A stretch of DNA of 64,000 nt from assembly GCA_949358305.1 (NCBI GenBank), contig OX442314.1, positions 32,240,001 to 32,304,000 on the forward strand, in the 5' to 3' direction. Shown piece after piece: positions 1 to 37,260 of the stretch. Positions within the stretch are counted from its first letter, which is position 1. Each line of letters opens with the position of its first letter. The translations under genes and the position numbers were made by a program. The notes beneath the pieces are model-generated. The model saw only the letters and a list, made by a program, of their open reading frames with translations. It searched no databases and was not told where the DNA came from. The stretch is from Strigamia acuminata (lineage: Eukaryota).

Positions 1-1363
1 AATGTCTTTTGGGCGGCGTCGACTCGCGTCGGTGATGTGAGCGATGACGAGCCTTCTGGAGTGGAGGTAACCCTCCAATGGCGCCTTCCCCCGACGACTG
101 TGTTGGGGAGGAGCGACGGCCACTGTAGGGCGACCTCGATGATCGTGACCTCGACGTGGAGCGCGGCGGCACCACATGGATGGTGGAAGCGACCTGTACC
201 CGGGGCTCAGGCTCTGGATACGGGTTTGGCACGAAATCAGCATGGAAACATCCGCCCATGGCTAGTTGATGCATCTCCGATTGGCATGTCGGCACCTAAC
301 GTTTCTTTCCGTCCGTTGTTACACGGAAAGATTCGTTGTAGAGGCGTACAACCTCGGCTTTGGTTTGATCCAAGCGTTGGAAAACGTCCTCCAAAATCTG
401 TCGACGCTCCCACGCAGGAGCGTTGAAGTAACGGCGATGGTCTCGCGTTTCTTGAGCGATCACTGTGAAGGCGAAGTCGAGCAACACGTTTCGCAGTGGT
501 CCGAAGGTGTCGCGCTTCATTGCCCACTCGAGGGCGTTGCAATGACCGAATCCATCGATTAAATAGGCGATCCGAAACTTCGTTCCCCATCGCTTGTTTA
601 AGGCTTTTGAGAACTTGTGTCGGGCCGCCCAAAACGTCAGTCTTCCTTTAGACTTTATGATCTCCGGTGGCAAAGCGTGTCGCCAGACACCGGGAGCTGT
701 TGGAACATCGGGGTGCAGTTTGAGATGCGTCTCCCGAAGCTGGATGATCTGTAAAATATTCGAAGAAATAATTAAAATCCATTTTTTCGTGTAAAATAAT
801 TATTTCCGAATTTTCAGTGAATAAAATCACGGGTGAGATTTCATTCGACAGTTTAGATTCATTAAATTTTTCAAAATATTTGAAAAATCGTAAGAAACGT
901 TGTTGCCGACGGCTATGTTTCAATGTTGGAGCGTTACCGTAGCAACGCCTCAAAAATGAGACACAGCGCCATCTGATGATAATAATGGCGGCGCCTTCTT
1001 GCGAAGGCGTTACCAACGAACTTTTCGCTTTTTCTGAGTGAAAATGCACTTTTAATTACTTTTCATGACTGAAAGGTAATTTTATTTTAAATTATTTACC
1101 CGGTCGTGTCTCTGTGCACGAGTTTCGCCGTTTGGATCGGCGAATAGGCCTCCTCGAAGTTGTGGTCGGGGCGGCGTGACTGGCAAACGGGCAGCAGCGT
1201 CGGCCAGAGCGGCTTGAGCTTCGGCGGACGCTTCGGCGGACTCTTCGGTGACATCCACGGATGTATTCGAAGTATTTGCGGAACCGAGCAGCGTCGAATT
1301 TGTTTCTAATTCGAGGCTGTTGGCGCCGGCTTCGCTTCCTTCTTTCGGTTCCTCTCCTTCCAT
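1..1363 (-). CDS. Putative spliced accessory (non-Env) gene of element A: coding exon 1363-1100, intron 1099-749, exon 748 to window edge with one in-frame TAG at 298-296
   Basis: CGG|GTAAAT donor and TTTTACAG|ATC acceptor join in phase 0 (RHDR|IIQLRETH) to the 673-296 ORF frame; the frame stays open for ~98 codons after the TAG; upstream 5'UTR intron 1449-1372 (GTAAGT..TTAG). Confidence 0.7.
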
Positions 1364-1572
1364 TTGAACGACTAATCCAAATGGAAAAGAAAAACGAAAA
1401 TTAATTTATTAGTTTTTCCTTGGAAAATTCCAAAGAAAAAGCTACTTACAATTGAAGATTCGGGAGAATTTATCCAACGGTTTCTCTTTTGGTTTTTTGG
1501 CGATGAGCACTTAGCACACGTGTGAGATCGAAGTGAACTCAGACGCGAAGTGATCAGTTCAAATACCGGAAG

Positions 1573-4500
1573 TTACGTTTGGGTAACGTCGCGGTTAGTG
1601 ACGTCATCCAATCTTATTGTTTGATTGGTTTGCGTATGGCTTGGGGAATTGCTCCTTACGTCATACGGCTGATCCCTGGATCTCGAGGTTATCGAGGGGA
1701 GAAGACACATGTTGTTTTTTCCTCTCGGTTTACGAGTCCGAAGATTATATCTCTTTGTCGGCGAGGGATTTATTGTATTTAAATCGCCGTCTTCATTGTC
1801 ATCGGAGACTGAGTCAGATGAGTCTTTTATTTCAGATGTTTTTTGTTTCTTTTCTAAAAACACCTTTTTATTTAATTTTTTAGCAATTTCAAGTTTTTTG
1901 AAACTGTCACGAAGCTCAACGTCGTTATTCACGAGGTCTGACTCCATTTGTGGTTTGGATAAATTATCGACAGGTATTTTCTTTAATTCATCGTCATCTA
2001 ACGTATTAATTATATTTTCAGTCTTTTGACCGACTTCTTCGCCTTCTAACCATACTTCCTGATCGAAACTCGGGAAATACGGAGTTAATTCAGACGAATG
2101 GACAGCTGGAAATATTTCGTTATTTTCTAGCTTTCTCAATTCTACGGATCCTCCCTGTAATACTTTGGTTATTACATATGGTCCTGTTCTTTTATCAGCG
2201 ATGCCAGCTGCAATGCCGCGGGCAGCGCTTGACAAAACATGAGAATCTCTCCAAACTAAATCGTTTAATTTAAAATTGGAGAACTTCTCACCTTCTTTTT
2301 TAAGATTTACTCGTCTGCGCAAATCTAACACGTGTGACATCATGTGTTGATATGTTTCGGCGATAACGGCTTTTAATTTTTGCACGTATAAATGTGGGTT
2401 TTTTGGATCTACGACCAAAATTCCTTCAGGTATTCTTGGATCCCAAGGTACTCTGAGTTCGCGAAAAAAGTTAAGAAATGCGGGAGAGAAGTCTCTTCCT
2501 CTCGTCACCGTAGTTCTCAAACTAAATGCAAATTCACGCAAATATTCGTCCCATTTGGAATGAACAGATGAATAAATTGCAACCAAATATTTGATGTCAC
2601 GGTTAACCCTTTCAACCGGGTTAGCTTGTGGGTGATATGTTGAAGTTGGTGTTGGAACCATCTTGAACTTTTCACAAAATTTTTTAAAGACTTGGGCACG
2701 AAATTGCGGGCCGTTGTCAGAAATAATTTTACGAGGGAATCCCATGCTCATGGAAAGGTGATAAATGCAATTTGCCACTTTTCCTGCAGTAGGGTTACAC
2801 ATTGGATATAATTCTGGCCAATGAGTTGCCACGTCAAGTATGACTAAAATGTGTGTGTTGTTTTTTCGAGTCCGAGGTTTCGGGCCGGTCAAATCAACAC
2901 TTAGGCAGTCAAATGGGCTGTAAGGACCCATTTGCGCTGCTTCAATTTGTCCTTTCGTTCGAGGCTTGCAAGCTTGACAACGCTCGCAATGTCGAATGAA
3001 TCTTGTAATGTCCGATTTCATGCCTTTCCAGGTATAAATTCGGCGTGCTCGATAAAGAGTCCTTGCAATTCCTGAGTGGCCAGAAAGTGGGTGGCCATGC
3101 ATTAGCCAAATAATTTTATACTTCAATGTCTGAGGTACAAAAACTTTGAGTGCTCTCCCATCCTCCCCCAATTCATCAGACATTGTGGGATGAAATTGCA
3201 TTAATAAGTCATCTTCAATTAAGAAGGTGGTTGCGTGTTTTCTGTATTGTTTCCTCTGGAGTCGCGTTGTGACGTCAGGCAGAAATTGATTACAATTTAA
3301 AAAATTACGCATCAATTGGCAAACTTTATCTTCTTTTTGGGCCTTGATTATGTCTTCCCTTGTAGGGGGTTCACAATCAAGACGCTCTACAATTTTGGCG
3401 ACAAATGCTTTTATTAAAACATTTGACGAAGGAATTTGAAATTTCTTTGAAATTTGCGCTCTTATGACGTCATCTGATTCCTCAGAGGGGTCATAAATTT
3501 TAGTCCAATAATTGACGAATTCGTGATCTTCCTTTTCCTCCAGCGTGGAGACAGGAAGTTCATGAAATTTTCCCATTTTCCAATTTCGTTGAGGTGATGG
3601 ACAGTAAGATAATAATTCGTCATTATCTCCATCATCTTCAGGATTTTCCGGTTTGTCAATCGGTGATCTGGATAAAGCATCCGCTAAAACATTTAGTGGA
3701 CCTTTAATATATTGTATTTCGAAAGAGTAGCGCATCAGCTCCATTTGCCAACGCGCTAATCTTCCGGCAGGTTCGTCTAACTGCATCAACCATTTTAGTG
3801 CTTGATGGTCAGTCCTAACTATGAATGTGGTAAATTCCAAATAATGTCGAAATTTACGTAATGCCCAGATTACCGCAAGGCATTCTAATTCTGTGGCGCT
3901 GTAATTTATCTCAGCAGGTTGCAAACTTCTGCTGGCATAAACACAAGGCACTTCGATATTTTGATCATCGATTTCCCTCATTTGCATAAGCGCGGCGCCC
4001 AGTCCTTTTCTGCTGGCGTCGGTATGCACAATAAATGGTTCTGTCAAATCAGGCATGGCCATTGTTTCTGCATTCGTTAAAGCATCTTTTATTTGATCAA
4101 AAGCTTCTTGATGAATTCCTGACCAAATAAATTCCACATCCTTTTTGAGTAAAGGACGTAGAGGTTCCGTCATGACTGCTAGATTCTTGAGTAATCTGTG
4201 AAAAAAGTTCACCATTCCCAAAAATCTTTGCAACTCTTTCAAATTTGAAGGAGCTGGCATTTCTTTAATGGCGGCGACTTTTTTAGGGTCGACACTGACT
4301 CCTTGAACACTTAACTTGTAGCCAAGAAAAGTTAATTCTTTTCTGCCAAATTTTGATTTTCCTGGATGAACATGAAGATTTGCATTTTCAAGTTTACTCA
4401 GAATTTCTTCCAGATGAATCATGTGTTCTTCAAAATTTTTAGATATAATAATTATATCATCGAGGTATGCCCATGCGAATTTTCGATAGGCGTCCCCCAA

Positions 4501-6021
4501 AATTTTTTCTATCAACTTTTGGAAAGTTGACGGCGCATTTACGAGGCCAAAGGGCATGACTCGAAATTGTAGTCGACCCAAAGGGCTCCAAAACGCAGTT
4601 TTAGCACGGTCGTTCGGATGAACCTCTATTTGCCAATAGCCTTTTGACAAATCTATCGTTGTGACCCATTCAAATCTTCCGAGTTCTCGCAAGATTTCCT
4701 CAATGCTCGGCATTTGAGGAGGATCGTATAATGTATGTGCATTGAGTGGTCTAAAATCAATGCAGAGTCTCGGATCACAATCCGGACGCATCACTAGAAC
4801 TATTCGCATTCCATAGTCTCCAGTGGCTTGTTCAACGTACCCATTATCCAACATATCTTGACAGATCTGACGGATAATTTCACGTTTCTGTGGATTTACG
4901 CTTTTAAACGGAACTCTAATTGGAACTTTAGTGTCCAGTTTAATTTCATGCCTAACGAGGTGTGTTCTACCTGGTCGGCGTGATAAAATCTTTTCATGTT
5001 TCTTTAATACTTTTTCAAGCATTAAATTATTTTCCATTGACAAATTAGCGTCGCTAACAAGTCTTTGTACTATATTTTCTTCATTTGCAACTTTAGCTTG
5101 ACACGCAGTGGCAGAGCCAGCTTTCATGTAATTTGCTTTAATAAAGTCGCGTCTCATGATTTCTTCGGGTGGATCAAGGAACTCTTGATAACGATCAAGA
5201 ATCGCTTGAGGAACAAAAGGTAAATCTTCTTTCAAAGACTTGACAAAATTCCAAGACATGGTCTTAGGATTTGGTTGAATATTGAGTCGATTCATGAAAT
5301 CACATCCTAATAAAATAATAGGATATTTATTTCTTAAAATTATGAATGGATGACTTAACATCCCGTGTGTCCACGCAAAAGAAAGTAGGAGAGTTCCTTC
5401 AGGGACTACATCTTCTGAAGCAGTCGTAACTCTCACATCCGGTCCAATTGGTCGAATTTCATCTTCCAGTTTCAACGAAATTACTACGGAGTAGGCCATG
5501 AAGCTTCGATTAGCTCCAGAGTCTAACATCCCTGTTATCATACCGTTTGCCGTCTGCAATCGAATCGTCGGCAAATCATTGCTGTTTGGTATGTCCGCGT
5601 ACTTGCACTTAAAACGTCGCGGTGGCTTAATTTCTATCGGCGGATCTAATGGTAATTCGTCCAATAAATCATTAGTGACTAGCGTTGCAGCCATTAATTT
5701 TTCAATACATTCATCAAGACCAGGTAAATCAATTTTATCTGACCTTTCAATGATTTCAGGTGTTGGCCTAGTTTTTTCATCAATTAAAGTAACAGCATCT
5801 TTTATTTTAGATTCCCAATCAATTTTTATTTGTTGAACTTTTTCTTTAAAAAATTCTTCAGTGATGTTCTCATTTTGCAGCACAAGCCTTAAATTGGAAA
5901 CATCAATTTTTGGAAATATTAAATTATTTTCTAATTCTAATTTAATCTGAGTATTTAAAAAATCATCTAAAATTTGAGATGGTGTTAGTTCATTTTCCGA
6001 GGCGGTAGGCGTTGCATCCAC
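1573..6021 (-). CDS. pol: Pol polyprotein of element A (protease, RT, RNase H, integrase), -1 frame relative to gag
   Basis: LDSGA protease, YLDD RT, TDAS RNase H, HGHPLSGH..CERC zinc finger, D-D(SDNG)-E integrase; uninterrupted 1482 codons. Confidence 0.97.
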   Translation of the reverse strand: MDATPTASENELTPSQILDDFLNTQIKLELENNLIFPKIDVSNLRLVLQNENITEEFFKEKVQQIKIDWESKIKDAVTLIDEKTRPTPEIIERSDKIDLPGLDECIEKLMAATLVTNDLLDELPLDPPIEIKPPRRFKCKYADIPNSNDLPTIRLQTANGMITGMLDSGANRSFMAYSVVISLKLEDEIRPIGPDVRVTTASEDVVPEGTLLLSFAWTHGMLSHPFIILRNKYPIILLGCDFMNRLNIQPNPKTMSWNFVKSLKEDLPFVPQAILDRYQEFLDPPEEIMRRDFIKANYMKAGSATACQAKVANEENIVQRLVSDANLSMENNLMLEKVLKKHEKILSRRPGRTHLVRHEIKLDTKVPIRVPFKSVNPQKREIIRQICQDMLDNGYVEQATGDYGMRIVLVMRPDCDPRLCIDFRPLNAHTLYDPPQMPSIEEILRELGRFEWVTTIDLSKGYWQIEVHPNDRAKTAFWSPLGRLQFRVMPFGLVNAPSTFQKLIEKILGDAYRKFAWAYLDDIIIISKNFEEHMIHLEEILSKLENANLHVHPGKSKFGRKELTFLGYKLSVQGVSVDPKKVAAIKEMPAPSNLKELQRFLGMVNFFHRLLKNLAVMTEPLRPLLKKDVEFIWSGIHQEAFDQIKDALTNAETMAMPDLTEPFIVHTDASRKGLGAALMQMREIDDQNIEVPCVYASRSLQPAEINYSATELECLAVIWALRKFRHYLEFTTFIVRTDHQALKWLMQLDEPAGRLARWQMELMRYSFEIQYIKGPLNVLADALSRSPIDKPENPEDDGDNDELLSYCPSPQRNWKMGKFHELPVSTLEEKEDHEFVNYWTKIYDPSEESDDVIRAQISKKFQIPSSNVLIKAFVAKIVERLDCEPPTREDIIKAQKEDKVCQLMRNFLNCNQFLPDVTTRLQRKQYRKHATTFLIEDDLLMQFHPTMSDELGEDGRALKVFVPQTLKYKIIWLMHGHPLSGHSGIARTLYRARRIYTWKGMKSDITRFIRHCERCQACKPRTKGQIEAAQMGPYSPFDCLSVDLTGPKPRTRKNNTHILVILDVATHWPELYPMCNPTAGKVANCIYHLSMSMGFPRKIISDNGPQFRAQVFKKFCEKFKMVPTPTSTYHPQANPVERVNRDIKYLVAIYSSVHSKWDEYLREFAFSLRTTVTRGRDFSPAFLNFFRELRVPWDPRIPEGILVVDPKNPHLYVQKLKAVIAETYQHMMSHVLDLRRRVNLKKEGEKFSNFKLNDLVWRDSHVLSSAARGIAAGIADKRTGPYVITKVLQGGSVELRKLENNEIFPAVHSSELTPYFPSFDQEVWLEGEEVGQKTENIINTLDDDELKKIPVDNLSKPQMESDLVNNDVELRDSFKKLEIAKKLNKKVFLEKKQKTSEIKDSSDSVSDDNEDGDLNTINPSPTKRYNLRTRKPRGKNNMCLLPSITSRSRDQPYDVRSNSPSHTQTNQTIRLDDVTNRDVTQT

Positions 6022-6054
6022 TAGACCGTCGGGATGCGCGCTTACAAGTTTTTT
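6010..6054 (-). promoter_or_regulatory. -1 ribosomal frameshift signal (A AAA AAC plus GCATCC/GGATGC stem)
   Basis: Heptamer at 6054-6048 is in the gag frame two codons before its stop; the -1 frame runs open into pol. Confidence 0.8.
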
Positions 6055-8936
6055 AGAAGTTCGCCGATTGATTTCATCGATTTTTCGAACTCCTCAATAA
6101 TCTTGTCTTTGCTCGTTTTCCTATCAGGACATTCTTTAGCCCAATGTCCTAATTTTTTGCAAATGTTACACGGGTCAGTAGCAGGTGATTTTGCGACTTT
6201 TGGCGAAGGCGAACTTGAGCGTTTGGCTTCGTCCTTTTTCGGGGTCGGCGACTTCGATCTACTGAGCGCGTCTGTCTTTGGTAAACCAAAAGTAACGTTT
6301 TTAGGCGCCATCTTTGGTCCAAATTTTCGAGCTACTGCGTTATTACGGGCTAATAAAGCAGCTGCAGCCTCGCTTTCTGGTTCCGAGTCAGATTTCTCTG
6401 GTTCAGAAGCAGCTTCCATATCTGTCACTTCGGCTAAGTGAGCTTTAGGGGTTGGATGTGGATTTTTCCCATCCGATCCCTTTCTAGATTCCTTAGCAGT
6501 CTCTGCCAAAAAATCTCCTCGTTTTGGGGGTTGCAAAAGAGGGGTGTTAGCAAAACGTGTGTCTTTTGCCAACTCCTTTCTCCGTTGCTGTCGCTTAGCG
6601 TACGCAACTTTTTCATCAGCTGGTAGATAAGCTTTATAATTTTCGTCAATCCTTATCTGATTAGCTCGCATAAATTTGGCTAATTCAGCGAAACCACCCG
6701 GATAAGGTGCTCGTACAGAAAGTAGAACATTTTTTGAGTAATCTGTCAATCCACGACGGAATTGACGATCAATGGCTGCGTCTCCCATCGTATAAGGGAG
6801 AGTGACCAATAAATCCTCAGTCCTTCTTAAATAAGAGCGAAGACTTTCGCCTTTATTTTGAGAAAGATTATCCCACATTTGTAATAAGTCTTCACTTGAC
6901 TCTCCATACTCAGTCATGAATTCTTCTACAAAGTGGTTCCAGTTTTGAAATTGTTTAGAATAAAACCATTTCTCAGCTCGATCTATAAGAGCTTTTGGTA
7001 CTACTCTTTTCAAAGCAGTGTGACATGCAATGCCATTCAACCTTGAAATTCGTAAAACTTCATCTAAAAGAGTGGATCCAGCTTCCCATTCTCCATCGAA
7101 TAAAGCGGGTTTGATGTGATCCCATCTAATAGTTCTTTCATCAACTAGATCGTGCGTCCAGTTGTTGGCAGTGTATTGAGCAATTTTCTGTCGTAGTGCA
7201 ATGTCAGCATTATCGGCAGTAGCGTCAGATCGATCGGAAGATCGACGATCAGCTAATAATCGATCAATTTCTTCAGCGGTGTAATAATGAGTATTACGCC
7301 GAGAAGAATGGCCTCGATGTCGACGTCGATGAGATCGATGTCGATTATCGCGTTCTTGTTGCGCATTCACATCAGAATCCGACCTTGAATCAGATTGTGA
7401 ATTTGAAGGCGTGTTAAAATGTGGTGTTTCAGGTGGGTCGGGTGGGTCGCCGTCATCGTCTGGCGGTCGACGTCCACCTCCAGGTGGTCCATCTCCGTGT
7501 CCATCTGGATTTCCTCCATTTGGTGGATTTCTTCTATACTGACCCCCACCTGGCGGGCTTTCATGTCCGTCGGGTGGTTCGCGTGCTGGATTCGTGTCTC
7601 GTCGACTTCTTTTCGACGAGTCTTGCTGTTGAGCCAGTGGTATCGTTCGAGTAACATGAATACCAGTTTCATGCCGTCTATTTTGATCATCTACCATTCC
7701 CAACAGTCGGTCACTGTTATGAAAAATAGGATTTCGATTTCCAGGGAGCGGATTGCGATCAGCTCTCCGTTCCTCGGAATCTGAAGGACGTTTTCTTTTT
7801 GAGCGATGGCGGCGACGCGAACGTTGGTCGTCATCACTCGATAATCCAGATTGGCTACTTAACTCTGAAACAACAGAAATTGTTATTGTTTCGGGAGTCA
7901 AAATAGGAACAGTTGGCGCAGCCATTTCTGGTTGTACCAATTGGTCAGTATAATTTCTTGCTTGCAAACGATCTTTCATTTCTGCAAGCTCCTCTTGAGC
8001 GCGCAACAAATCAGCTCGGAGAATTTCATTCTCATTTATTTCATTTTGCGATTTTTCTGGTTGTAATCGCTTAGCAGGGTCGCTAGACTTGACTTGTCCG
8101 CTCGTACTGGGTTGATCCAGCGAGTGGAAAATCTCGTCTTCACGCTTAGCTATTTTGCTTTCGCGAGTACGCTGTGTTTTAGCACGTGTGTCTAATTCAG
8201 CAGCATATCTCACTAGTTGATTATGATTGCGTTGGTAGTGATCTGCCAAATCAATCAACTCTTTATTTTTCTGCTCTAACTTACTTTTGGTAAGTTCGAG
8301 CTGTCTTCGCGCCTCTTGGTGTGAGCGAATTGAAAGTTCATTTCTAGTATTCATTTTAGAAAGATCTTCCACTTCACCTTTTAATCTGTATTCTCTAGCT
8401 TTTTGGGCTAGAAATTCCTCATTTTGTCGATTGAGTTCCATATGTTGGAGCTCAACCTCCGCTTTTTGTTGTTGAAGCTCAGCTTGTTTTCGCTCCATTT
8501 CAAATTGTAAATTTGAAACGGCGCGGTCAGTGTGAAGTCGTATCATGGCGCGATGAATCTCTTCCACCGTCATGTCGTCCGTTATTTGGGCGCCATCTTG
8601 GCGTGCTTGATTTCTCAAAGCATCCAACATGGTCATGCGAGGAGGTGATTCGTGAGACGATTCACTTTCCATTTCACGTAACGTATTTTCCACTTCCTCC
8701 AGTGGAAGTGGCGGGAGTTCTTGTTCGTTAGAACTCGCACTTGATGCGCTCAGGGCTCGAGCAACCTCATTTTCAGCATCCTTAAGTTGTTTCGGATCTG
8801 GAACTGGTGTTATTTCTTCAGAAATAACTTTTTCCATAAGCATTTCAGGCTCGAGAGCCGGCAAAACCGTCGCTGCTCGTTTCTGAGTGCTTGGTCGACC
8901 TCGCTGTCGTTTTACAATTTGCATTGGCGTCGCCAT
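6042..8936 (-). CDS. gag: Gag of element A (964 aa: N-terminal coiled coil, capsid-like region, CCHC knuckle)
   Basis: CNICKKLGHWAKEC knuckle; LSQNKGESLRSYLRR major-homology-like motif; ATG directly downstream of the PBS. Confidence 0.93.
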   Translation of the reverse strand: MATPMQIVKRQRGRPSTQKRAATVLPALEPEMLMEKVISEEITPVPDPKQLKDAENEVARALSASSASSNEQELPPLPLEEVENTLREMESESSHESPPRMTMLDALRNQARQDGAQITDDMTVEEIHRAMIRLHTDRAVSNLQFEMERKQAELQQQKAEVELQHMELNRQNEEFLAQKAREYRLKGEVEDLSKMNTRNELSIRSHQEARRQLELTKSKLEQKNKELIDLADHYQRNHNQLVRYAAELDTRAKTQRTRESKIAKREDEIFHSLDQPSTSGQVKSSDPAKRLQPEKSQNEINENEILRADLLRAQEELAEMKDRLQARNYTDQLVQPEMAAPTVPILTPETITISVVSELSSQSGLSSDDDQRSRRRHRSKRKRPSDSEERRADRNPLPGNRNPIFHNSDRLLGMVDDQNRRHETGIHVTRTIPLAQQQDSSKRSRRDTNPAREPPDGHESPPGGGQYRRNPPNGGNPDGHGDGPPGGGRRPPDDDGDPPDPPETPHFNTPSNSQSDSRSDSDVNAQQERDNRHRSHRRRHRGHSSRRNTHYYTAEEIDRLLADRRSSDRSDATADNADIALRQKIAQYTANNWTHDLVDERTIRWDHIKPALFDGEWEAGSTLLDEVLRISRLNGIACHTALKRVVPKALIDRAEKWFYSKQFQNWNHFVEEFMTEYGESSEDLLQMWDNLSQNKGESLRSYLRRTEDLLVTLPYTMGDAAIDRQFRRGLTDYSKNVLLSVRAPYPGGFAELAKFMRANQIRIDENYKAYLPADEKVAYAKRQQRRKELAKDTRFANTPLLQPPKRGDFLAETAKESRKGSDGKNPHPTPKAHLAEVTDMEAASEPEKSDSEPESEAAAALLARNNAVARKFGPKMAPKNVTFGLPKTDALSRSKSPTPKKDEAKRSSSPSPKVAKSPATDPCNICKKLGHWAKECPDRKTSKDKIIEEFEKSMKSIGELLKNL

Positions 8937-9008
8937 TTTGTCAAATTGAAAAAGAACAATGGAAATAAAGGATCTTTTTGCAAAAATCGGATTTTAACAA
9001 TCAAAACT

Positions 9009-9026
9009 ATCCCGGACGGGCCCCCA
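9009..9026 (-). promoter_or_regulatory. Primer-binding site, tRNA-Pro type
   Basis: TGGGGGCCCGTCCGGGAT, 2 nt after the LTR end; 17/18 to the MLV-type tRNA-Pro PBS TGGGGGCTCGTCCGGGAT. Confidence 0.9.
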
Positions 9027-9028
9027 AG

Positions 9029-10092
9029 TGCGGCGATCCGGGTTTTTACTTATTAAATTATATAAATTCAATAAGCAATCGTCGTAGAGATGCCGTACAG
9101 GACTTCTACTCTGTGGCCAAATGTTTGTCTAGGGGAATGATTTTACACAGAGTAAAGGAAAAATTAGATAGTTTTAATCGTTCAAAATACAAAGGAGGTA
9201 TTATTTAAAATGTTTGGGGTCGATCTGGCTTCTTCTTCAAATGTACACTCACAGTTGACCGTTGACTCCAAGATGGCGTCGATGGCGTCGTGTGAGCGCG
9301 GGATTTTAGCGGAGTAAACTCGACGCTAAAATACGTTGCTAAAATATACTAAAATCCTCGTGGAGCACGCTCGACACGAGAATACGTCTTGCACACAGCG
9401 GTTCGATTATTACGGAGCAAGCTCGACGTAACAATCGGTCTTTACACAAATCGCTTTGTGGAGTTAAACTCGACACAAAGCCTCCAAACTAACAGAGTAA
9501 ACTCGATGTTAGTTTCACACAGAAATGGCTTAAATTACACGTAGTAATTCAAGCTAGAAAGTTGCTATTCCGTACAGTGGGTACAGACCAGCGATGAAAC
9601 TCAATTCGTCCAAGAATCACAGATCACACTTTGCAGTTTTGGCAGAAGTTTGACACGGTTGTGAACAGTTTGGAGGTGGAATCAAGAGTGCGGGAAGAGT
9701 GGGCCAAAACCGTTTGGCTCACTCCTAAATCTGCTCAGAAAAGCTGCGCAGATGACGAGTTGCACAAAGATCACACACGGCCGCCCTCGGGTCGTGTGCA
9801 ACAACTGAGCCGGGCACGCGCGAGGGGAAGGGATGCTCCGCCCAGGCACACGCCTAGCAGCATCATCAAAGCAATGCACGCTGCAGCGCGATTGGTTGAC
9901 GCTGTTGCTGGGCCAAAACTTGCTGCAAAACACAATATTATTTGGGTAATATTGTGTCTTGTTTTATATTTTATTAATGTATGTTTTATTTCAATTTACA
10001 TTGAAACAAAACATATAAGCTTGTTGAATATGTTTATAAGACAATTTGGAAATATGGTGCGCACTCAAATAGGAATATTTGAGGTCACCACA
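9029..10092 (-). repeat. 5' LTR of element A (1064 bp)
   Basis: TGTGGTGAC...CGCCGCA termini; colinear with the solo LTR at 43492-44565. Confidence 0.95.
9303..9515 (-). ncRNA. Array of five TAR-like bulged RNA hairpins within the LTR (cis element)
   Basis: Five different stems (6-10 bp), each capped by UC bulge-GAG-loop-CUC; pairing preserved in the diverged solo LTR. Confidence 0.8.
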
Positions 10093-10764
10093 GCTTTGAT
10101 GAAGACGTCCGGCTCGCATTCTGTCGGTAGTTTTGCTTGCACGTCCTTGATGGTCGATAGGATTTGTTTTTGTAGCGCGAGGTAGATCGGTTCTTTTTGA
10201 TTTTCGTCCCATATCGTAAGGGAATACACGGTGGAAAATAGACCGTTCCATTCGTTAATGGTAACTCGTTAGTTCCATTTCGAATGCTAATGTCTCTATT
10301 CGATAATCCATTTCATCGACAAATTGTTCGCTTTCAAAATTGATCGTGGCTAGGCGAATTTTCTCGGCCGCGTCTGGATCTACGAGGAGAACTTCGGCAA
10401 CGAGCGCTTCAAACTCTGGTGACCGCTGAGGAAATTCATATCTTTGTCTTGGAGTCGAGGTGCGTGGTTGAGTACGATCATTTACTTTGTCAATACTCCT
10501 TTTTGTTTCAGCATCCATTTCACGATCCGTTGAAACATTTTTGAATTTTTGAAATGAACGTTTTTTCGCATCAAGTGAAATTTCAGCCGATATCTCGGCT
10601 TCGGCGATTTCCAATCGAGTTTCGGCTGAGCGTTTAGCCGTTACTTCCTTTGGAAAACTAGTGCGCCGAGTTTGGGCACCTTGTGGGCAGTTAGACCCGA
10701 CTATTGGACGACTATACGTCCTTCCCTCAATTGGCGAAGGGACTTCATCATGTAACTTAGGCAT
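10093..10764 (-). pseudogene. Second, rearranged copy of the element-B ORF (first ~166 codons identical, then a different open frame cut by the element A LTR)
   Basis: Identity to 16662-16166 stops at 10268; the sequence beyond reads VTINEWNGLF...DVFIKA in another frame. Confidence 0.75.
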
Positions 10765-10905
10765 GATGGCAAGAATGTTACAAAAAGAGAAGAAAGATGA
10801 TAGGAAAGTTAGAAAAATAGGTAAAAAATACTAAAATGGGGAAAAACAAGATTTTTTAATTTTTTAATCTTACTTTAAATTCTAAAAATTCTAAAAATTG
10901 GGATA

Positions 10906-10923
10906 ATCCCGGCCGGGCCCCCA
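10906..10923 (-). promoter_or_regulatory. PBS, tRNA-Pro type (second copy at 16804-16821)
   Basis: TGGGGGCCCGGCCGGGAT, 2 nt after the LTR end. Confidence 0.8.
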
Positions 10924-10925
10924 AG

Positions 10926-12411
10926 TGTTGCGTTCCTGGATGTTCCCAAAATATATGATAATAATAATTGCACAGAATATTAATCTAATTCAATGCAAAA
11001 GGTCCCGGTATTCAACCTGTGGAAAGCAGTTGAATGCCGTAAAAGGTCTTCTATCGGGTTTGGCAGTTAAGTTGGTGTCTAGGGGTTTTTTGGCTGTTGG
11101 TTTTGTGTCTAGGGGTTCTTTTGGTAGCAAATGCAATAATAACAAGTAATTTAAAAAAGGATAAACAGTTTTATTAATGTTAAAATTAAGGAGTAATATG
11201 AATACAAGGGATAAATAAATAATTAAGTGAATATTGCTAAAGTTAAACAAAGAAATAAGAGAAAGGCGCGAGAACAATGGAATTGTTCGCGCGCGCGGAA
11301 ACAATAAGTTTGGAAAATGGCGGCAACGGATCGCCGTGAAAATTGGTGCAAATGCACACAAACGGGCGCGGAATCGTGAGATTTCGCGATGTGATTCGGC
11401 TGTGGAGCCAGAATCGTGGCCAGCTAGATAGCCAGGCCAAAGTGGAGAATACGAGGTGTGAACCCTCGAGTTGAAACGGGAAATTCTCCGTTGAAAACTC
11501 ACGAGTCCAACTGGCGTGGTTCGCACTGTCGAATCCGGTTTTCAGGTCCGTTTCTTCTCGGTAAATTACCGTCGTCAGTAGGTCGAGCGTCGAGGTTTCG
11601 TCGGCTTTCGCGCGTCGTCCCTCGTCAACTCGGCGGCTGGCTGGCGTCGGTCTTCAACGTATATCACTCGAATTACCGTCGTCGGTGGCTAGCGTCGAGG
11701 TTTCGTCGGCTTGGCGCGCGTCGTCCCTCGTCGGCTTGGCGTGATCCGGGCGTCGGTCTACGATGGTGCGTATACGTTTATCTTCGGGCGGCGGCGGAAA
11801 CAACGGTTGCTCGGTCCGTTGCACGTCGACTTCGTCGTCCGGGAAGGAGTCACTTGATGCGTATTGGCATCAAGCAAATCAGTTGAAACTTTGCAATATC
11901 TCACGGATCACGGACAAAACAGTGTTTTTGGTTTGAACAAAGCTGTGTCGGTGTGAACGGTGTGAGGAGGAGGCAAAGAGTGAGTAATAAACGAATTTAT
12001 TACCCAAACTTTGGCCGGAAAATCGGCCGAGTGCGCATGCGTGGCATGCACCTGGCACACTTCGTGCCCAGCAACGGTGCAAATTAGGAGCTGGCCATAG
12101 CAACCCCCCAATTTGGCAGTTAGGTTGCCATGGCAGTCCTAACGGCTTCTGTTTAACAGCCGAAAGCACTTGGCAATTGCAAATAAAATGAGTATTTTAT
12201 TTGCACAAGCAAGCAAAAAATATGTAATTATTTTAACAAATAATTCATTAAAAACACTAAAATAAATTGATTCCTTAAATTACCAATTTCTACTATTTCT
12301 AAATAATTAAAGGGACTGTAAAACAATTTATTTAACACATTAAATAGATTAAATTATTAATTTCTTATACTCCAAATATTCCAAATAAAAGGAACATTTG
12401 AGATCACAACA
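10926..12411 (-). repeat. Element B internal (shared) LTR, 1486 bp
   Basis: TGTTGTGATC...GCAACA; preceded by PPT GGGGGGAAG (12420-12412) and followed by a PBS. Confidence 0.93.
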
Positions 12412-12747: not shown

Positions 12748-15700
12748 TTAGTGGCATTGAATCCAATAAATGATGCCGATTGGTAACTCTGGGGCTAAAG
12801 GAGTCGGCAATCGAGGTAAGCTCATGTCTGTTGTCTTGTCTCGAAGGTTTTCCCTCTCGAGGACAAGTTCAAACGGACGGCCGGTATACGGCCCAAAAAT
12901 TAAATCTGTGTTGTCGTGCAACCACTCACTTCTAATTGAGCAAAAGTTGACGTTATCTTCAAACGTTATTTCGTTATTTTCTCGGGGCATTTTCGGCTTT
13001 TTTCTAACTTTTGTTAGCCGCTGATAATGAATCCACGGCTGCTTTGCCTCGATGTGGCGTTCTGAGCGCTCTTGATCTTCGTACCCGAGATTAACTGAAT
13101 TTTCTTGCAGCATCCTCATGTGTGGTTGCAGCCTTGAGTAGGTTTTTCGTAATTGGCGGTAAATTGTCAATTCTTCTTGATCTTCCAACTGTTTCGAGGG
13201 AATTGAACAAGGTTTCGCCGGTGACGGCGGTTTTGTCCGTGATGGACGTCTCTTTTTTGTAGACTGTCGAGTCACGGGAGGTGCGAAGGCACATGTTTCA
13301 CTGATTGGTCTTGTCGCCAATGCGCCTTGTGCATCATGCACTAGTCGGGTGACCAAGCGATTTTTCCGCTGAAGAAATGTTTTTGGCCTGGCGCCTGAGC
13401 TGGCATAATCGACAGTCCGTAGGATGGGCCCGCTGGAATTGGGTCTTGACGTTGAAATCGACGAGTTGACGGGCTGTATTGTCGTAAATTGTCCTGAGGT
13501 CTTTATAGCCTTTTTGGTCGCTTTTACAGCAACACCAGCAGCAGGATTCAATGTTGATGAAGATCTCGTTTTCTTCTTGACCAGGGAGACCGGCATTTCT
13601 TCTGGTTGAACTGATTCGAGCTCCGTTTGGTAGGTATCTCCTCGTTCATCTCGTTCATTCAGCAGTTTGACCAACTCGGCCGAATGTTTGGAAATCGAAG
13701 CTGGTGGAGACTTCTTTTTTAGCGTTGGCGAAACTGGTGTCTCTACTGATTGAATCGCTGGGAGTACATGCTTGTGAGCGATCTTCCGTGGCTTCCGCTT
13801 CTTGTGAAGTTGGATGGCCGATTCGGCCAAGTGTTTGTTACTAACAAGTACAAGTTCTTGCTGTATGGTCGACGAATCTAGGAGAATGGACCTCCAGTAG
13901 TCTAAAAAATTATCTTGGTTACCAGTATTCATCGGGGGTGTCCAGAGACATATTGCGTCTGCGAGGGCAATTCGATTGCTTGTGGCGGTGCTCCGAGTTA
14001 AAATGCTGCAAAGTCCTGCGACCAATAATTGTTGTAAAGCGGAGAGTTGAATGTCCAGGGCATTGGTTGGCTCCATGTCGCGCAGATGATTGATTATACG
14101 CTGCCAATTTTGAATGGTTTTGCTAATTTGAGTCCTTTGATACTCATTCAGGTCTTCCATCAAAATATCTTGTGTGTCACGAGGCAATACTTCAACACTG
14201 GACTTCGTCATGTCATAATTTTGGTCAAACGATCGGCTTTGAGTCAAAGAAACTGTTTCGAATTTCTCAGCCGGAAATTGGGATTTTGTGGTGCTTGTTT
14301 TTGGATACACAGAGGTCGTGATGGAGTTTCTAACAATAGATACTTCTTGTGCATTCGGATGTGTTAACACTGGGGTCAAATGGGTAATTGGTTTCTCCAA
14401 ATTTTCAATTTGCATTAACACTGGAGTCGAATTGATAATTGACTTTTCCCAATTTTCAACTTGCGTTGCCCAATCCATAGCCGTTTGGTCGGCTGTCTGT
14501 GACAATTCCAAGGGATAATCTTTTTTAATTTTTTCCGCTGTTGGCACAGAATTAATATTTTTCAACAAGGCGATTGATGTTGGAGTGGCGGAGATCGGCG
14601 CATCACTGGTTGAGACATAAATTTCCGTCGGCTGCGATGTGTCGGTCTCTGCGTCCCATCGTTTCTCTGCTTTGCTGAGAGGCTTTTCCCCTGCAATTGT
14701 TCCATGTGGCTCACACACTTCCACGTCTTCATCCCGTTCATCGGAATTTTCATCAGGCTGTGGAACTTGGTGATATGACGTTTCGTATCGTTGTTGTTTA
14801 GTGAGCTCACCGAATTCACAAATTTTCCTTTCAGATTGACACTTGGGATGGTCTTTTTTATCAAGAAAGGTAAATTTTGGTTGCGCACCCTTATTTATTT
14901 TAGATGTATCAAATGATCTTTTTGTAAAAAGCTTTTTAGGCTTACATTTATCTTCAGCCACGTGTTTAGCTAACACTACACTGGTATTACCAATTGTTGA
15001 GCCGGTTTCTTTTTCGGCTTTCACTTTAGCTTTGAGATCGACTTCATTCATCGAGTCAACAATGGTAAGTCGAGTATGAGAATGAGAAGTTTTTGTAGAA
15101 CAATGAGGATTCTGCACTTGATTAATGTTTTTTGCCGGTTTCTCGGCAAATGTAGCTGCACTTGATCTCTCGAAAGTTTGTTCTCGGTATTCAAATGTTT
15201 TTTCAATCTCTTCAGTTGCATTGTAAATTGGGGTCCAATCTGAGAGCGAAGATGCACATGTTTGAGGACGACTTTGTTGTCCCCCCACCTTAGGTGAACG
15301 CGTTGACTGTTCACTGCTGAAAGCGGAATTTTCACGTCTTGATTGATATGGCGGAGAACAATCACTACTTTTTTCGCATTCCCTCTTTGGTGGATTAATA
15401 TATGTTGGTGAACCGTAATGTGATTGAGAGTCATTGAAATTATTTTCGATATCTGAATTTTTGCAGAAGTTGCTGGATAATTTCGCACTTTGTTCACAAT
15501 TTTTTGAGTCTATTATATTCAATAATGCATGGCTATTATTAAATATTTCATCACTTGAAGTGTTCCATTTTTTACAGTCAGAAGCTTCCATCGTTGAACT
15601 TCTTTTCGTTTGAAATTTTCGTTTGTCATTACTGGACGCACAGAACGAACGATTATTGTCAGTAGTTGCAAGATTAACCATTTTAGGTTTGAACGCCGTG

Positions 15701-16662
15701 ACATCCGGCGGATTCGGTTGTTGAGTTGTAAACTCGGCTGATCGAATCTTCTTCAAGAGTTCGTCTATCTCTTCCTGAGATTTTTGTATTTCCGCAAATT
15801 TTGCCGTCCATTCGGTTTTGTGAAATTGTCGGCATGGTGATGATGGTGTTTCACGAATTTCATGCGACTTTTTCCATTTTCGATCCGCATCTAACCGTTG
15901 TTGTGGTTGTAAGGTGAAGGATTCGTCCTCACGGTGGGATAAATTCTTTGTACGCACTTGTCGCAGATTGGCTATTTCTTGAAGTTCCAATTCGCGGGCT
16001 TTAGTTCTATTACAAATTTCTTCGTCTAGAGCTTGTTTAGTTTCGTCAAGCTCTCTGCTTGTTCTTTCCAATTCTTCAATTTCGGCACTTTCATTTGCAT
16101 TTTCCTCGGCCGCACAATGTTTATTTAAAACGAGTTTGGCTTGTGATAAATTCAATCGGTCACGAGTTAGTTCCATTTCGAATGCTAATGTCTCTATTCG
16201 ATAATCCATTTCATCGACAAATTGTTCGCTTTCAAAATTGATCGTGGCTAGGCGAATTTTCTCGGCCGCGTCTGGATCTACGAGGAGAACTTCGGCAACG
16301 AGCGCTTCAAACTCTGGTGACCGCTGAGGAAATTCATATCTTTGTCTTGGAGTCGAGGTGCGTGGTTGAGTACGATCATTTACTTTGTCAATACTCCTTT
16401 TTGTTTCAGCATCCATTTCACGATCCGTTGAAACATTTTTGAATTTTTGAAATGAACGTTTTTTCGCATCAAGTGAAATTTCAGCCGATATCTCGGCTTC
16501 GGCGATTTCCAATCGAGTTTCGGCTGAGCGTTTAGCCGTTACTTCCTTTGGAAAACTAGTGCGCCGAGTTTGGGCACCTTGTGGGCAGTTAGACCCGACT
16601 ATTGGACGACTATACGTCCTTCCCTCAATTGGCGAAGGGACTTCATCATGTAACTTAGGCAT
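12748..16662 (-). CDS. 1304-aa orphan ORF of element B (coiled-coil N terminus, S/T/K-rich low complexity, helical C-terminal part)
   Basis: Single long ORF between PBS and PPT; no CCHC, protease, YxDD or DDE motif seen. Confidence 0.8.
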   Translation of the reverse strand: MPKLHDEVPSPIEGRTYSRPIVGSNCPQGAQTRRTSFPKEVTAKRSAETRLEIAEAEISAEISLDAKKRSFQKFKNVSTDREMDAETKRSIDKVNDRTQPRTSTPRQRYEFPQRSPEFEALVAEVLLVDPDAAEKIRLATINFESEQFVDEMDYRIETLAFEMELTRDRLNLSQAKLVLNKHCAAEENANESAEIEELERTSRELDETKQALDEEICNRTKARELELQEIANLRQVRTKNLSHREDESFTLQPQQRLDADRKWKKSHEIRETPSSPCRQFHKTEWTAKFAEIQKSQEEIDELLKKIRSAEFTTQQPNPPDVTAFKPKMVNLATTDNNRSFCASSNDKRKFQTKRSSTMEASDCKKWNTSSDEIFNNSHALLNIIDSKNCEQSAKLSSNFCKNSDIENNFNDSQSHYGSPTYINPPKRECEKSSDCSPPYQSRRENSAFSSEQSTRSPKVGGQQSRPQTCASSLSDWTPIYNATEEIEKTFEYREQTFERSSAATFAEKPAKNINQVQNPHCSTKTSHSHTRLTIVDSMNEVDLKAKVKAEKETGSTIGNTSVVLAKHVAEDKCKPKKLFTKRSFDTSKINKGAQPKFTFLDKKDHPKCQSERKICEFGELTKQQRYETSYHQVPQPDENSDERDEDVEVCEPHGTIAGEKPLSKAEKRWDAETDTSQPTEIYVSTSDAPISATPTSIALLKNINSVPTAEKIKKDYPLELSQTADQTAMDWATQVENWEKSIINSTPVLMQIENLEKPITHLTPVLTHPNAQEVSIVRNSITTSVYPKTSTTKSQFPAEKFETVSLTQSRSFDQNYDMTKSSVEVLPRDTQDILMEDLNEYQRTQISKTIQNWQRIINHLRDMEPTNALDIQLSALQQLLVAGLCSILTRSTATSNRIALADAICLWTPPMNTGNQDNFLDYWRSILLDSSTIQQELVLVSNKHLAESAIQLHKKRKPRKIAHKHVLPAIQSVETPVSPTLKKKSPPASISKHSAELVKLLNERDERGDTYQTELESVQPEEMPVSLVKKKTRSSSTLNPAAGVAVKATKKAIKTSGQFTTIQPVNSSISTSRPNSSGPILRTVDYASSGARPKTFLQRKNRLVTRLVHDAQGALATRPISETCAFAPPVTRQSTKKRRPSRTKPPSPAKPCSIPSKQLEDQEELTIYRQLRKTYSRLQPHMRMLQENSVNLGYEDQERSERHIEAKQPWIHYQRLTKVRKKPKMPRENNEITFEDNVNFCSIRSEWLHDNTDLIFGPYTGRPFELVLERENLRDKTTDMSLPRLPTPLAPELPIGIIYWIQCH

Positions 16663-16823
16663 GATGGCAAGAATGTTACAAAAAGAGAAGAAAGATGATA
16701 GGAAAGTTAGAAAAATAGGTAAAAAATACTAAAATGGGGAAAAACAAGATTTTTTAATTTTTTAATCTTACTTTAAATTCTAAAAATTCTAAAAATTGGG
16801 ATAATCCCGGCCGGGCCCCCAAG

Positions 16824-18309
16824 TGTTGCGTTCCTGGATGTTCCCAAAATATATGATAATAATAATTGCACAGAATATTAATCTAATTCAATGCAAAAGG
16901 TCCCGGTATTCAACCTGTGGAAAGCAGTTGAATGCCGTAAAAGGTCTTCTATCGGGTTTGGCAGTTAAGTTGGTGTCTAGGGGTTTTTTGGCTGTTGGTT
17001 TTGTGTCTAGGGGTTCTTTTGGTAGCAAATGCAATAATAACAAGTAATTTAAAAAAGGATAAACAGTTTTATTAATGTTAAAATTAAGGAGTAATATGAA
17101 TACAAGGGATAAATAAATAATTAAGTGAATATTGCTAAAGTTAAACAAAGAAATAAGAGAAAGGCGCGAGAACAATGGAATTGTTCGCGCGCGCGGAAAC
17201 AATAAGTTTGGAAAATGGCGGCAACGGATCGCCGTGAAAATTGGTGCAAATGCACACAAACGGGCGCGGAATCGTGAGATTTCGCGATGTGATTCGGCTG
17301 TGGAGCCAGAATCGTGGCCAGCTAGATAGCCAGGCCAAAGTGGAGAATACGAGGTGTGAACCCTCGAGTTGAAACGGGAAATTCTCCGTTGAAAACTCAC
17401 GAGTCCAACTGGCGTGGTTCGCACTGTCGAATCCGGTTTTCAGGTCCGTTTCTTCTCGGTAAATTACCGTCGTCAGTAGGTCGAGCGTCGAGGTTTCGTC
17501 GGCTTTCGCGCGTCGTCCCTCGTCAACTCGGCGGCTGGCTGGCGTCGGTCTTCAACGTATATCACTCGAATTACCGTCGTCGGTGGCTAGCGTCGAGGTT
17601 TCGTCGGCTTGGCGCGCGTCGTCCCTCGTCGGCTTGGCGTGATCCGGGCGTCGGTCTACGATGGTGCGTATACGTTTATCTTCGGGCGGCGGCGGAAACA
17701 ACGGTTGCTCGGTCCGTTGCACGTCGACTTCGTCGTCCGGGAAGGAGTCACTTGATGCGTATTGGCATCAAGCAAATCAGTTGAAACTTTGCAATATCTC
17801 ACGGATCACGGACAAAACAGTGTTTTTGGTTTGAACAAAGCTGTGTCGGTGTGAACGGTGTGAGGAGGAGGCAAAGAGTGAGTAATAAACGAATTTATTA
17901 CCCAAACTTTGGCCGGAAAATCGGCCGAGTGCGCATGCGTGGCATGCACCTGGCACACTTCGTGCCCAGCAACGGTGCAAATTAGGAGCTGGCCATAGCA
18001 ACCCCCCAATTTGGCAGTTAGGTTGCCATGGCAGTCCTAACGGCTTCTGTTTAACAGCCGAAAGCACTTGGCAATTGCAAATAAAATGAGTATTTTATTT
18101 GCACAAGCAAGCAAAAAATATGTAATTATTTTAACAAATAATTCATTAAAAACACTAAAATAAATTGATTCCTTAAATTACCAATTTCTACTATTTCTAA
18201 ATAATTAAAGGGACTGTAAAACAATTTATTTAACACATTAAATAGATTAAATTATTAATTTCTTATACTCCAAATATTCCAAATAAAAGGAACATTTGAG
18301 ATCACAACA
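16824..18309 (-). repeat. Element B 5' LTR, 1486 bp
   Basis: No difference from 10926-12411 seen by eye; identical ORF-track translations. Confidence 0.93.
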
Positions 18310-25832: not shown

Positions 25833-26842
25833 TGTCACGGCCCGGCATTAACGCGTAATGTAACTTTAACCCATTGTTGTGTTTGTTCGCGTTTTCCGTG
25901 AGTTCCTAGCTATGATTTGTTATCATTGTTTTGTTAAAACTCCCAATAAATCCTAAACCTAATATAATTTGAGTTTTGTCCTACCTTTATTTCCTATTCA
26001 TGTTTATCCTTTGATTTGGTCTGGTGTGGCTCAATTCTGCCACATCAGACTAGTCTAAGTCGTGTATTTCCTACTGTTACCCCTCCTAATTTCGTTTAGT
26101 TCATCCTATCTAATTTAAATGTTTAGTCACTCGCGACTGACTCATCGCGATGATTATTCACGAGCGCGCCTGATTGGCTTACGCGTGCTTGACTCATGGT
26201 TCTCCCCTCGTTTTCTGTGATGGACTTGGCCCAAGTTCACTTCTGAGCTGTTTCAGCCAAGTCTGATCAGAAGGCGTAAGACCATGAGCTATCGTAAGTG
26301 CCTTAACTGGCCGTTGTGCATTTGGCGACTTTTCCTGTGTTAATTCGCAGTAACTCCATGCCACGTAATTGTGCATGTTTGAGTATATCCATTATCATAT
26401 CGCGTGTCTAAATTCCGCGTGTCATCTTTGATTCCTTTCCTTTCGATGTTCTTTTGTGTTTACACGAAGTTTTATGCCGCTGACGTGCCTCTGGACTAGA
26501 AATTAGATTCAAGTAGCTAATGAGTTGTTTATTTCGTCTTTTGCGCGCGATTAGTGCGCGCTTGCTCGGTCTGGCCGCTCCGCCATTAGGGGTCCCTGCC
26601 AGATTAGCTTAAGCCACGTTAGCGTTGTTAAGTCCGCACGTGAGCATTACTTCTTCCACTTTTAAGGCTCCAACAAACTCGGTAATAATTCGTAACATGA
26701 TCGAATAGGGGGTTAAGCTTGCCGCCACCCTTCAGGCTGCTTAACGTTGCCGGGCCCTTATTCGGGACCAGGCTCTCTTGTATCGTAACTGGCGCGTCTT
26801 TCAAACGCGGTTTCAAAGACCAGAAACAACCGGTTCATGACA
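25833..26842 (+). repeat. Element C 5' LTR
   Basis: TGTCACG...CATGACA; repeated at 37261-38270. Confidence 0.97.
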
Positions 26843-26844
26843 CG

Positions 26845-26862
26845 TGGTGCCGAAACCCGGGA
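26845..26862 (+). promoter_or_regulatory. PBS, tRNA-Phe
   Basis: TGGTGCCGAAACCCGGGA, complementary to the 3' 18 nt of animal tRNA-Phe. Confidence 0.92.
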
Positions 26863-27055
26863 CCTTGTTGGAGTTTATTCAGTCTAGCGCATATAAACTA
26901 GTTGCTATCTAACAAGCATTAGTGGCGTTTTTTAGAGACTATTTTGCCGAAAGGAAGGTTTCAGAGTAACTAACTCTTCATAGTACTTGCGTATCGTTTA
27001 ATTACGGTGCGCATCATTTGCAGTGAGCTGTTATTACCCTTATTGTCTCACTAAT

Positions 27056-36680: not shown

Positions 36681-37260
36681 GGCGCGTCCCGTTAAGTGAA
36701 AGTGACTTTTTTCCGGAATTGACTTTTCTGTGTGATTAACGTGACTTTTTTCCGCGTAATCGAACGCGAAGTTTAGTGCTTTTGATGCGGACATTTTGTT
36801 TGAACTTTTTGCCTGATTGTGAAATTTTTATTTGTGCCTTTTGATCGCGTGTAAATTTTTGAAGTGTGAGATTTGATTCGCTTGTGTTGTTGAGTCCACG
36901 CGAAGTTTCGCGCCTCACCCTTGCGTTTTTGATTTTTGTTTTCCTTCCGCGATCTTAAGATTTTCTTATTATAGTGTATATTTTCTTTTTTGTAGTGTTC
37001 CCGAGCGTCGCGATCTTAGTTAAGTGATTTATGCACCATGTGCATCTGTGCCTGGCGCTTAGGCTAGTAATGTTTTATTTTGTGTTTTCGGCGCTTAACG
37101 CCTGTGTGTATTGTTGAGTCTACGCGACAATCCTCGCGCCTCATAATGTTTGTTTAATTTGATTGATCATTCCAATTGATATTTTGTTTTTGTATCGCTT
37201 TTTATTTTCTTTACTTTTCAGATTTGTTTCGAGAATAAAAACACTCTCGTCCGAGGGGCG

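Follow-up and report, generated by a model that had tools for sequence, protein, structure and literature searches.

The closest described counterparts of the gene analyzed here belong to other animal elements. In Cer1 of Caenorhabditis elegans, the env slot gives rise to CERV, a spliced non-Env product required for export of the genomic RNA (PMC10309623). For the env genes of Oikopleura Tor3b and Tor4b, 5′ rapid amplification of cDNA ends placed the start of the Penv transcripts within or just after pol (PMC4402516). Bdelloid rotifer long terminal repeat (LTR) elements carry third open reading frames (ORFs) for non-Env proteins of the GDSL, DEDDy, coiled-coil, and transmembrane (TM) types (PMC5408684), and among 22 lepidopteran consensus elements, 7 have the ORF of an sORF2/FAST-like fusogen placed after pol (bioRxiv 10.1101/2025.03.14.642691). 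Here, we analyze an accessory gene at the 3′ end of element A, a multi-copy Ty3/gypsy LTR retrotransposon on the minus strand of a 64,000-nucleotide stretch of Strigamia acuminata DNA (contig OX442314.1, positions 32,240,001 to 32,304,000; referred to as the window).

Element A shares with Cer1 a non-Env ORF after pol and a spliced form, the latter represented by an intron 2 join in contigs. The cerv gene has five exons, exons 1–3 being in the gag frame, and its product contains a Cys-rich loop and a G-like domain (PMC10309623), whereas the gene of element A has its own ATG (position 1363), both introns after pol, and an RS tail, with neither CERV domain visible. Sequence kinship with CERV was judged by general searches only, and the comparison otherwise follows the published description. 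The Tor elements are similar in that the third gene is transcribed from the end of pol, which in element A is only a prediction; their product, however, is a membrane Env made from an unspliced mRNA (PMC4402516), whereas that of element A is non-Env and its gene has introns. The rotifer ORF3s are likewise lineage-specific, located after pol, and assigned to non-envelope roles, but they are recognizable enzymes or membrane proteins, and introns are not mentioned in that text (PMC5408684). The sORF2/FAST products are described as short single-pass membrane proteins with no promoter of their own, usually starting with MG (bioRxiv 10.1101/2025.03.14.642691). The element A protein does not fit this description, as it starts with ME, exceeds 337 residues, and has no membrane helix in view. 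The foamy virus accessory genes Tas and Bet lie beside an internal promoter (PMC7828637), in true retroviruses that possess env and have no sequence link to element A. We regard foamy viruses as a loose analogy and CERV and the Tor internal promoter as closer. In the literature covered (most subscription journals, Repbase, and supplements lay outside the search), no element was described that unites self-contained introns with a non-Env protein bearing an RS tail and a predicted internal promoter. The precedents, i.e., CERV, the Tor internal promoter, and the rotifer ORF3s, are known separately.

Exon–intron structure of the accessory gene

All coordinates that the original prediction had given for motifs, introns, and exons proved correct on re-reading of the minus strand. 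Translation would start at ATG 1363 in an acidic exon of 88 codons (1100..1363; 16 D/E, 7 K/R, low complexity). Intron 2 (749..1099; 351 nt, GTAAAT..TTACAG, phase 0) follows; the coding exons on either side fuse in phase 0, and retention of the intron would introduce seven in-frame stops. The core of exon 3 (299..748; 150 codons) is basic, with 28 K/R and 5 W, and is predicted with low confidence to be helical. After a TAG at 296..298, the frame continues as a Ser/Pro/Arg/His-rich RS tail (1..295) that is cut by the window edge and comprises at least 98 codons, with nine RS/SR dipeptides and seven His in view. A basic cluster is located at residue 236 of the predicted protein, and the 337 visible residues include 3 Cys.

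Sibling copies of element A were seen as contigs of three public runs, X1 and X2 from one study and X3 from another. An X1 contig (depth 506) joins position 748 to 1100, so that exactly 749–1099 (351 bases with CT..AC ends) are skipped. The boundaries of intron 2 had been predicted blind and were then matched by this contig. In X2, a contig departs from the window sequence at 1100 and continues for 78 loose letters, the 30 shown of which match 719–748 in register (25/30, by eye); we read this loose end as a direct exon–exon join in a diverged copy. None of the runs is recorded as RNA, and all three behave like DNA: the depth stays level across the introns, and 15 different flanks are found at the LTR start. 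Moreover, rare rearranged joints recur at proportional depths (252, 110, and 42 for 2981–4192; 319, 82, and 27 for 6054–7240). Because the runs look like DNA, the 748–1100 join likely represents intron-less copies rather than transcripts. The spliced gene that had been proposed originally is backed by a join in contigs, read as DNA copies and not as mRNA. One or two intron-less genomic copies are the likely source, most simply reverse-transcribed from spliced RNA. Alternatively, the main family has gained an intron; either way, the 351 bases constitute an intron. Copies without it are rare, their depth of 506 in X1 comparing with approximately 220–380 per single rearranged copy and a family total of tens of thousands.

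Several points weigh against this interpretation of the join. It comes from a single study (X1 and X2) and from diverged copies, and it is not listed for X3. In X1, it is marked "between: not known" and its shorter side has 27 letters. The join could also go back to an earlier state in which the intron was absent. CT..AC ends are found at a second joint, too (1230–1539 in X2), which indicates that such ends can arise by chance, and the variant counts given below rest on 40 of 99 variant rows. As splice joins, 1230–1539, 718–863, and 1025–1197 were rejected and read instead as unaligned patches of diverged copies. Joint 1241–3414 (X1 only, depth 1825) was rejected as an intron, too, as it cannot be shifted to GT-AG ends; it removes the end of the integrase together with the candidate promoter and the first part of the accessory gene, and is possibly the mark of a deleted subfamily.

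Conservation of the reading frame

The accessory exons contained 21 listed variants among the sibling copies, of which 20 were counted after exclusion of the stop-codon variant. Fourteen of the 20 were at third codon positions (P 0.0009), and so were 10 of 13 when a 7-site patch at 1157–1171 was left out (P 0.002). The acidic exon accounted for 10 of the variants, 7 of them third-position; for comparison, the proportion in gag and pol was 21/33. All six listed indels fell outside the coding exons, in introns or the 5′ untranslated region (UTR), with a P of ~0.002 if uniform over 1–1572, a value inflated by homopolymers. The listed diverged contigs over the tail and the core differed by 8–15% without any gap (15–341 gap-free), and two contig pieces across intron 2 had three gaps each. 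The expectation that the frame is conserved among sibling elements was therefore confirmed, both by the third-position bias and by the indels avoiding exons. From the junction and the frame conservation, we conclude that the accessory gene is very probably a real coding gene with intron 2.

These data also bear on the view that the gene is a fragment of a host gene, captured along with its promoter and introns, which travels as mere cargo and does nothing for the element. The G+C content of the exons (0.53–0.61, above the 0.39 of pol), the housekeeping-type promoter motifs, and the host-like size of intron 1 would fit with cargo. The codon-position bias, however, equals that of gag and pol in strength, no host-like homolog was found among 1.84 billion representatives, and related elements have their own, different third ORFs. 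We consider the cargo explanation very unlikely.

For the TAG at 296–298, the original prediction had left a choice between lesion and readthrough. The depth differing from the window at this codon was 62957/63059, 29138/29138, and 6631/6631 in the three runs. With nearly all of the run depth differing, programmed readthrough is excluded; the stop is private to the window copy and is thus a lesion. The window copy would yield a product cut at residue 238, and its siblings would supply the full protein.

Properties of the predicted protein

The original prediction had seen neither a signal peptide nor a TM segment, and the 337 visible residues indeed contain none. On a simple scale, the highest 11-residue hydropathy within the first 35 residues was 0.25. 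The visible residues, beyond which the C-terminus lies outside the window, also lack a membrane helix (maximum 19-residue hydropathy 0.94) and a furin-type site. An unusual Env or fusogen anchored through its unseen part would be in keeping with the env position of the gene, with a C-terminus beyond the window, and with the use of an internal promoter by Tor env. Against it stand 337 residues without signal peptide, membrane helix, or furin site and with 3 Cys only, an RS/Arg-rich stretch that is ill-suited to an ectodomain, and the lack of a match to any Env family in Pfam. An Env or fusogen is very improbable, and we conclude for the 337 visible residues that the accessory product is very likely not Env.

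No homolog of exon 3 was found among 1.84 billion representatives, longer proteins, metagenome and viral contigs, phages, and G001, a bin filed as a bacterial genome. The accessory protein belonged to no family in Pfam, PHROGs, or NCBIfam. A sequence match in the PDB to ribosomal L13 (best E 0.056) was rejected as chance. Single-sequence folds were poor (predicted local distance difference test, pLDDT, of 43 and 45), the fold search (best E 0.69) was uninformative on novelty, and the fold comparison reached a best Z of 5.0 on generic helices, the models being too poor to judge novelty. The ESM Atlas returned ERCC4-bearing clusters at 0.88 (ERCC4 on 25% of the members) and 0.86. An ERCC4/XPF nuclease was nevertheless rejected: a hidden Markov model of 29 actinobacterial domains, derived from 29 of 30 fetched bacterial loci, scored −2.1 bits on exon 3, 319 of 500 shuffles scored at least as well, and the hhalign probability was 0.24. 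Among viral and metagenome contigs, integrase scans detected no relative. The protein family appears to be new within the reach of these searches. Since the searches by sequence, family, and fold all ended without a relative, we infer the function of the protein solely from the layout of the gene.

Candidate internal promoter

A candidate internal promoter (1565..1630, minus strand) contains motifs that we take to be CCAAT boxes, a CRE palindrome, and an ETS-type site. These are CCAAT at 1628 (in AACCAATCA at 1630), ATTGG at 1612, TGACGTCA at 1606, and CTTCCGG at 1572 (in ACTTCCGGT at 1573), the last overlapping the pol stop at 1575–1573. Together, AACCAATCA, ATTGG, TGACGTCA, and ACTTCCGGT span 66 bases, covering the last 20 pol codons and the stop; initiator-like TCACTT follows just 3′ at 1553 and 1536. 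The motif trio occurred in 0/2000 local and 0/200 element-wide resamples, odds that are weakened by the post hoc choice of the motifs. TGACGTCA alone occurs three times in pol, and of its 7 sites in the window, only 1 lies within 50 bases of both partner motifs. The sole ATG in 1660–1364 is at 1607, so that transcripts starting below 1566 would have a leader free of upstream ATGs. No listed variant falls inside the promoter motifs. In X1, the alignment of one diverged contig is gap-free over 1708–1539 and then breaks off for 283 letters, the gap-free part being a weak hint of constraint.

A non-coding first exon is predicted at 1450..1553, with an inferred start; 1606 to 1364 is free of ATG, and three of the six listed indels lie inside the exon. 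Intron 1 is predicted in the 5′ UTR (1372..1449; 78 nt, GTAAGT..TAG, 74% A+T). It has a perfect donor and, at 1412, a CTAAT 40 bases ahead of the acceptor, and by eye its size is that of host introns. No junction for intron 1 was seen among the contigs of X1–X3, and the 15 of 40 joints listed included none from the leader or from gag to the accessory gene. We count the local donor at 1449 in favor of the internal promoter, as it needs an upstream exon.

The same gene could instead be expressed without an internal promoter, from an mRNA that starts in the 5′ LTR and, like an env mRNA, is spliced from a donor in the leader; such expression can be combined with any function of the product. Two features of the element weigh on this side and against the promoter: a strong donor (GTGAGT at 9252) within the LTR keeps leader splicing possible, and a possible acceptor near 1676 (pyrimidine run and CAG, by eye) allows a leader-spliced mRNA. 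CERV and Tor3a env are also made by leader splicing. An mRNA using the acceptor near 1676 would, however, include the upstream ATG 1607, and direct splicing to 1371 would make the perfect donor at 1449 superfluous. In addition, the motif trio is improbable by chance. We regard expression from the LTR as possible, albeit doubtful. Judging from the motifs, an internal promoter with a start near 1553–1536 and removal of intron 1 is moderately probable.

RNA structure and proposed function

According to our proposal, the third gene would be transcribed from the internal promoter predicted where pol ends, and the accessory mRNA would be spliced and encode a nuclear RNA-binding regulator. Like CERV and Rev, this regulator would let the intron-bearing genomic RNA evade splicing or leave the nucleus, its basic core and RS tail acting perhaps on the folded intron 2. 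Because the introns are kept through RNA copying and intron-less copies are rare, the genomic RNA would mostly evade splicing while the subgenomic RNA is spliced. The rarity of the intron-less form implies that unspliced RNA was the template for most genomes, which would call for some control over splicing or export. The absence of a signal peptide and membrane helix, the basic core, and the RS tail count for a regulator.

Intron 2 folds as a series of hairpins (z −7.7, 0/100 shuffles; middle part z −4.6), more strongly than the LTR stretch tested (z −3.0). A partnership of the accessory gene with the LTR hairpins, as suggested originally, is conjectural. Windows of 100 bases at z ≤ −3 made up 10/33 in 1–1700, compared with 0/26 behind pol of a second element, element B, and 1/24 in an A+T-rich control. 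Element A (1–10092) folds better than shuffles throughout (mean z −1.6 to −1.8), which the non-coding parts of element B do not. No Rfam match was found in 1–10300.

Some of these and other observations speak against an RNA-directed regulator. Folding at z ≤ −3 was also found in pol (5/29) and the LTR (7/21) and is thus not intron-specific, and the opposite strand of intron 2 folds as well. No homolog, domain, or usable fold links the accessory protein to RNA binding, and with 3 Cys it has no Cys finger in view, unlike CERV. Furthermore, simple elements export their unspliced RNA by host factors alone. Given the folding in pol, the LTR, and the opposite strand, intron 2 is a candidate response element for the accessory protein rather than a demonstrated one. 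By analogy, we tentatively assign to the protein a Rev/CERV-like action that would involve its basic core and its RS tail and might target the folded intron 2; we hold this to be plausible rather than probable.

The acidic 88-residue exon and the basic core would also suit a transcriptional transactivator or anti-silencing factor of the Tas type, with the acidic exon as activation domain and the basic helical core binding to DNA or chromatin of either the internal promoter or the LTR. The internal-promoter layout is that of foamy viruses (PMC7828637), and an early, LTR-independent promoter would suit a feed-forward activator. This role is rather unlikely, given that no DNA-binding family was found, that the RS tail points toward RNA processing, and that the acidic exon is Ala/Ser/Thr-rich and linker-like. 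The probability left over by the regulator, transactivator, cargo, and Env readings goes to other functions.

In its most complete form, the RNA-regulator proposal amounts to a self-built switch: the internal promoter would produce a doubly spliced mRNA for an SR-like protein that binds intron 2 and licenses export and packaging of the genome, and in relatives the corresponding slot would be taken by other third genes with promoters of their own. As a whole, this scheme is speculative and should be considered unlikely.

Third ORFs in related elements

Element B (25833–38270, plus strand) has a 624-codon non-Env ORF after pol (34806–36680), located behind 1.4 kb of A+T-rich DNA and encoding a basic N-terminus and two CxxCxGxG repeats. 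It matched the DnaJ-type CxxCxGxG domain weakly (E 0.044) and TIGR02642 with E 0.005; homologs of this ORF were searched for and none was found. A primer-site scan led to G001 (contigs L060–L079), a bin in which 159 gypsy pol matches were found and which is contaminated with animal repeats. In a reverse transcriptase (RT) tree (FastTree) that included 12 of 20 fetched G001 contigs and no named reference elements, and in which long branches are possible, nine G001 contigs grouped with elements A and B and seven unnamed proteins (support 0.996).

Four of these nine contigs (L060, L066, L071, and L075) have a sense ORF of at least 120 codons after the integrase, none of which resembles the exons of element A or the ORF of element B. 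In L071, TGACGTCA occurs ~100 bases ahead of the third ORF, and the third ORFs of L069 and L078 are related, with a GC box and a TATA box preceding each of them. The motif AGATGGCGC, which we take to be CTCF-like, is found in intron 2 of element A (975, minus strand), behind pol of element B (33781, plus strand), and 828 and 1488 bases past the integrase of L060. These are four hits past the integrase versus none in matching pol stretches of 11 clade members, small numbers that allow the suggestion that AGATGGCGC may insulate the third gene from pol. Third ORFs look common and fast-changing in the lineage of element A.

Other features of element A and the window

The 5′ LTR of element A (9029..10092, minus strand; 1064 bp) has TG...CA ends and is 92% identical to a solo LTR at 43492–44565, which is bordered by a TCCT target duplication. 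In X1, many different flanks meet the LTR start at 10092 (15 loose ends, agreement 0.43). The primer binding site (9009..9026, minus strand), presumably of the tRNA-Pro type, lies 2 nt past the LTR. With TG..CA ends, primer binding site, and short target duplication, the features of an LTR element are present; the 3′ LTR is beyond the window. The gag gene (6042..8936, minus strand) encodes a Retrotrans_gag domain (PF03732, E 2.9e-9) and one CCHC knuckle (PF00098). The pol gene (1573..6093, minus strand), in the −1 frame relative to gag and open throughout, encodes protease, RT, RNase H, and integrase, so that gag and the pol domains are in the Ty3/gypsy order. The closest Pol relatives are 43–46% identical, and those among them that bear names come from insects. 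In the gag/pol overlap (6042–6093, minus strand), an AAAAAAC run immediately ahead of the gag stop is likely a −1 frameshift site. The X3 depth of 2000–3400 for main contigs versus 14–51 for rare ones suggests tens of copies of element A, which is a rough gauge since depth is no copy number.

CpG depletion was absent wherever tested in the window. A host gene at 52600–56300 (plus strand) with short A+T-rich introns (by eye) presumably codes for a HECW/NEDD4-like ubiquitin ligase, a name that we assign from its C2 and WW motifs. An unclassified element contains a 1326-codon ORF (12748–16728, minus strand) without a Pfam match, lying within a 2.15-kb direct repeat whose copies (10260–12411 and 16158–18309) are 99.9% identical.

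Concluding remarks

For most ORFs that occupy the env slot of LTR retrotransposons, no function is known; CERV is among the few with a demonstrated regulatory role. If spliceosomal introns are to persist in an element that is copied via RNA, the element has to control its own splicing or export. With multiple copies, open gag and pol genes, and rare intron-less copies, the element A family offers a built-in comparison by which this can be tested. Together with element B and the relatives in another animal, which have unrelated third ORFs, it points to an under-annotated pool of accessory proteins.

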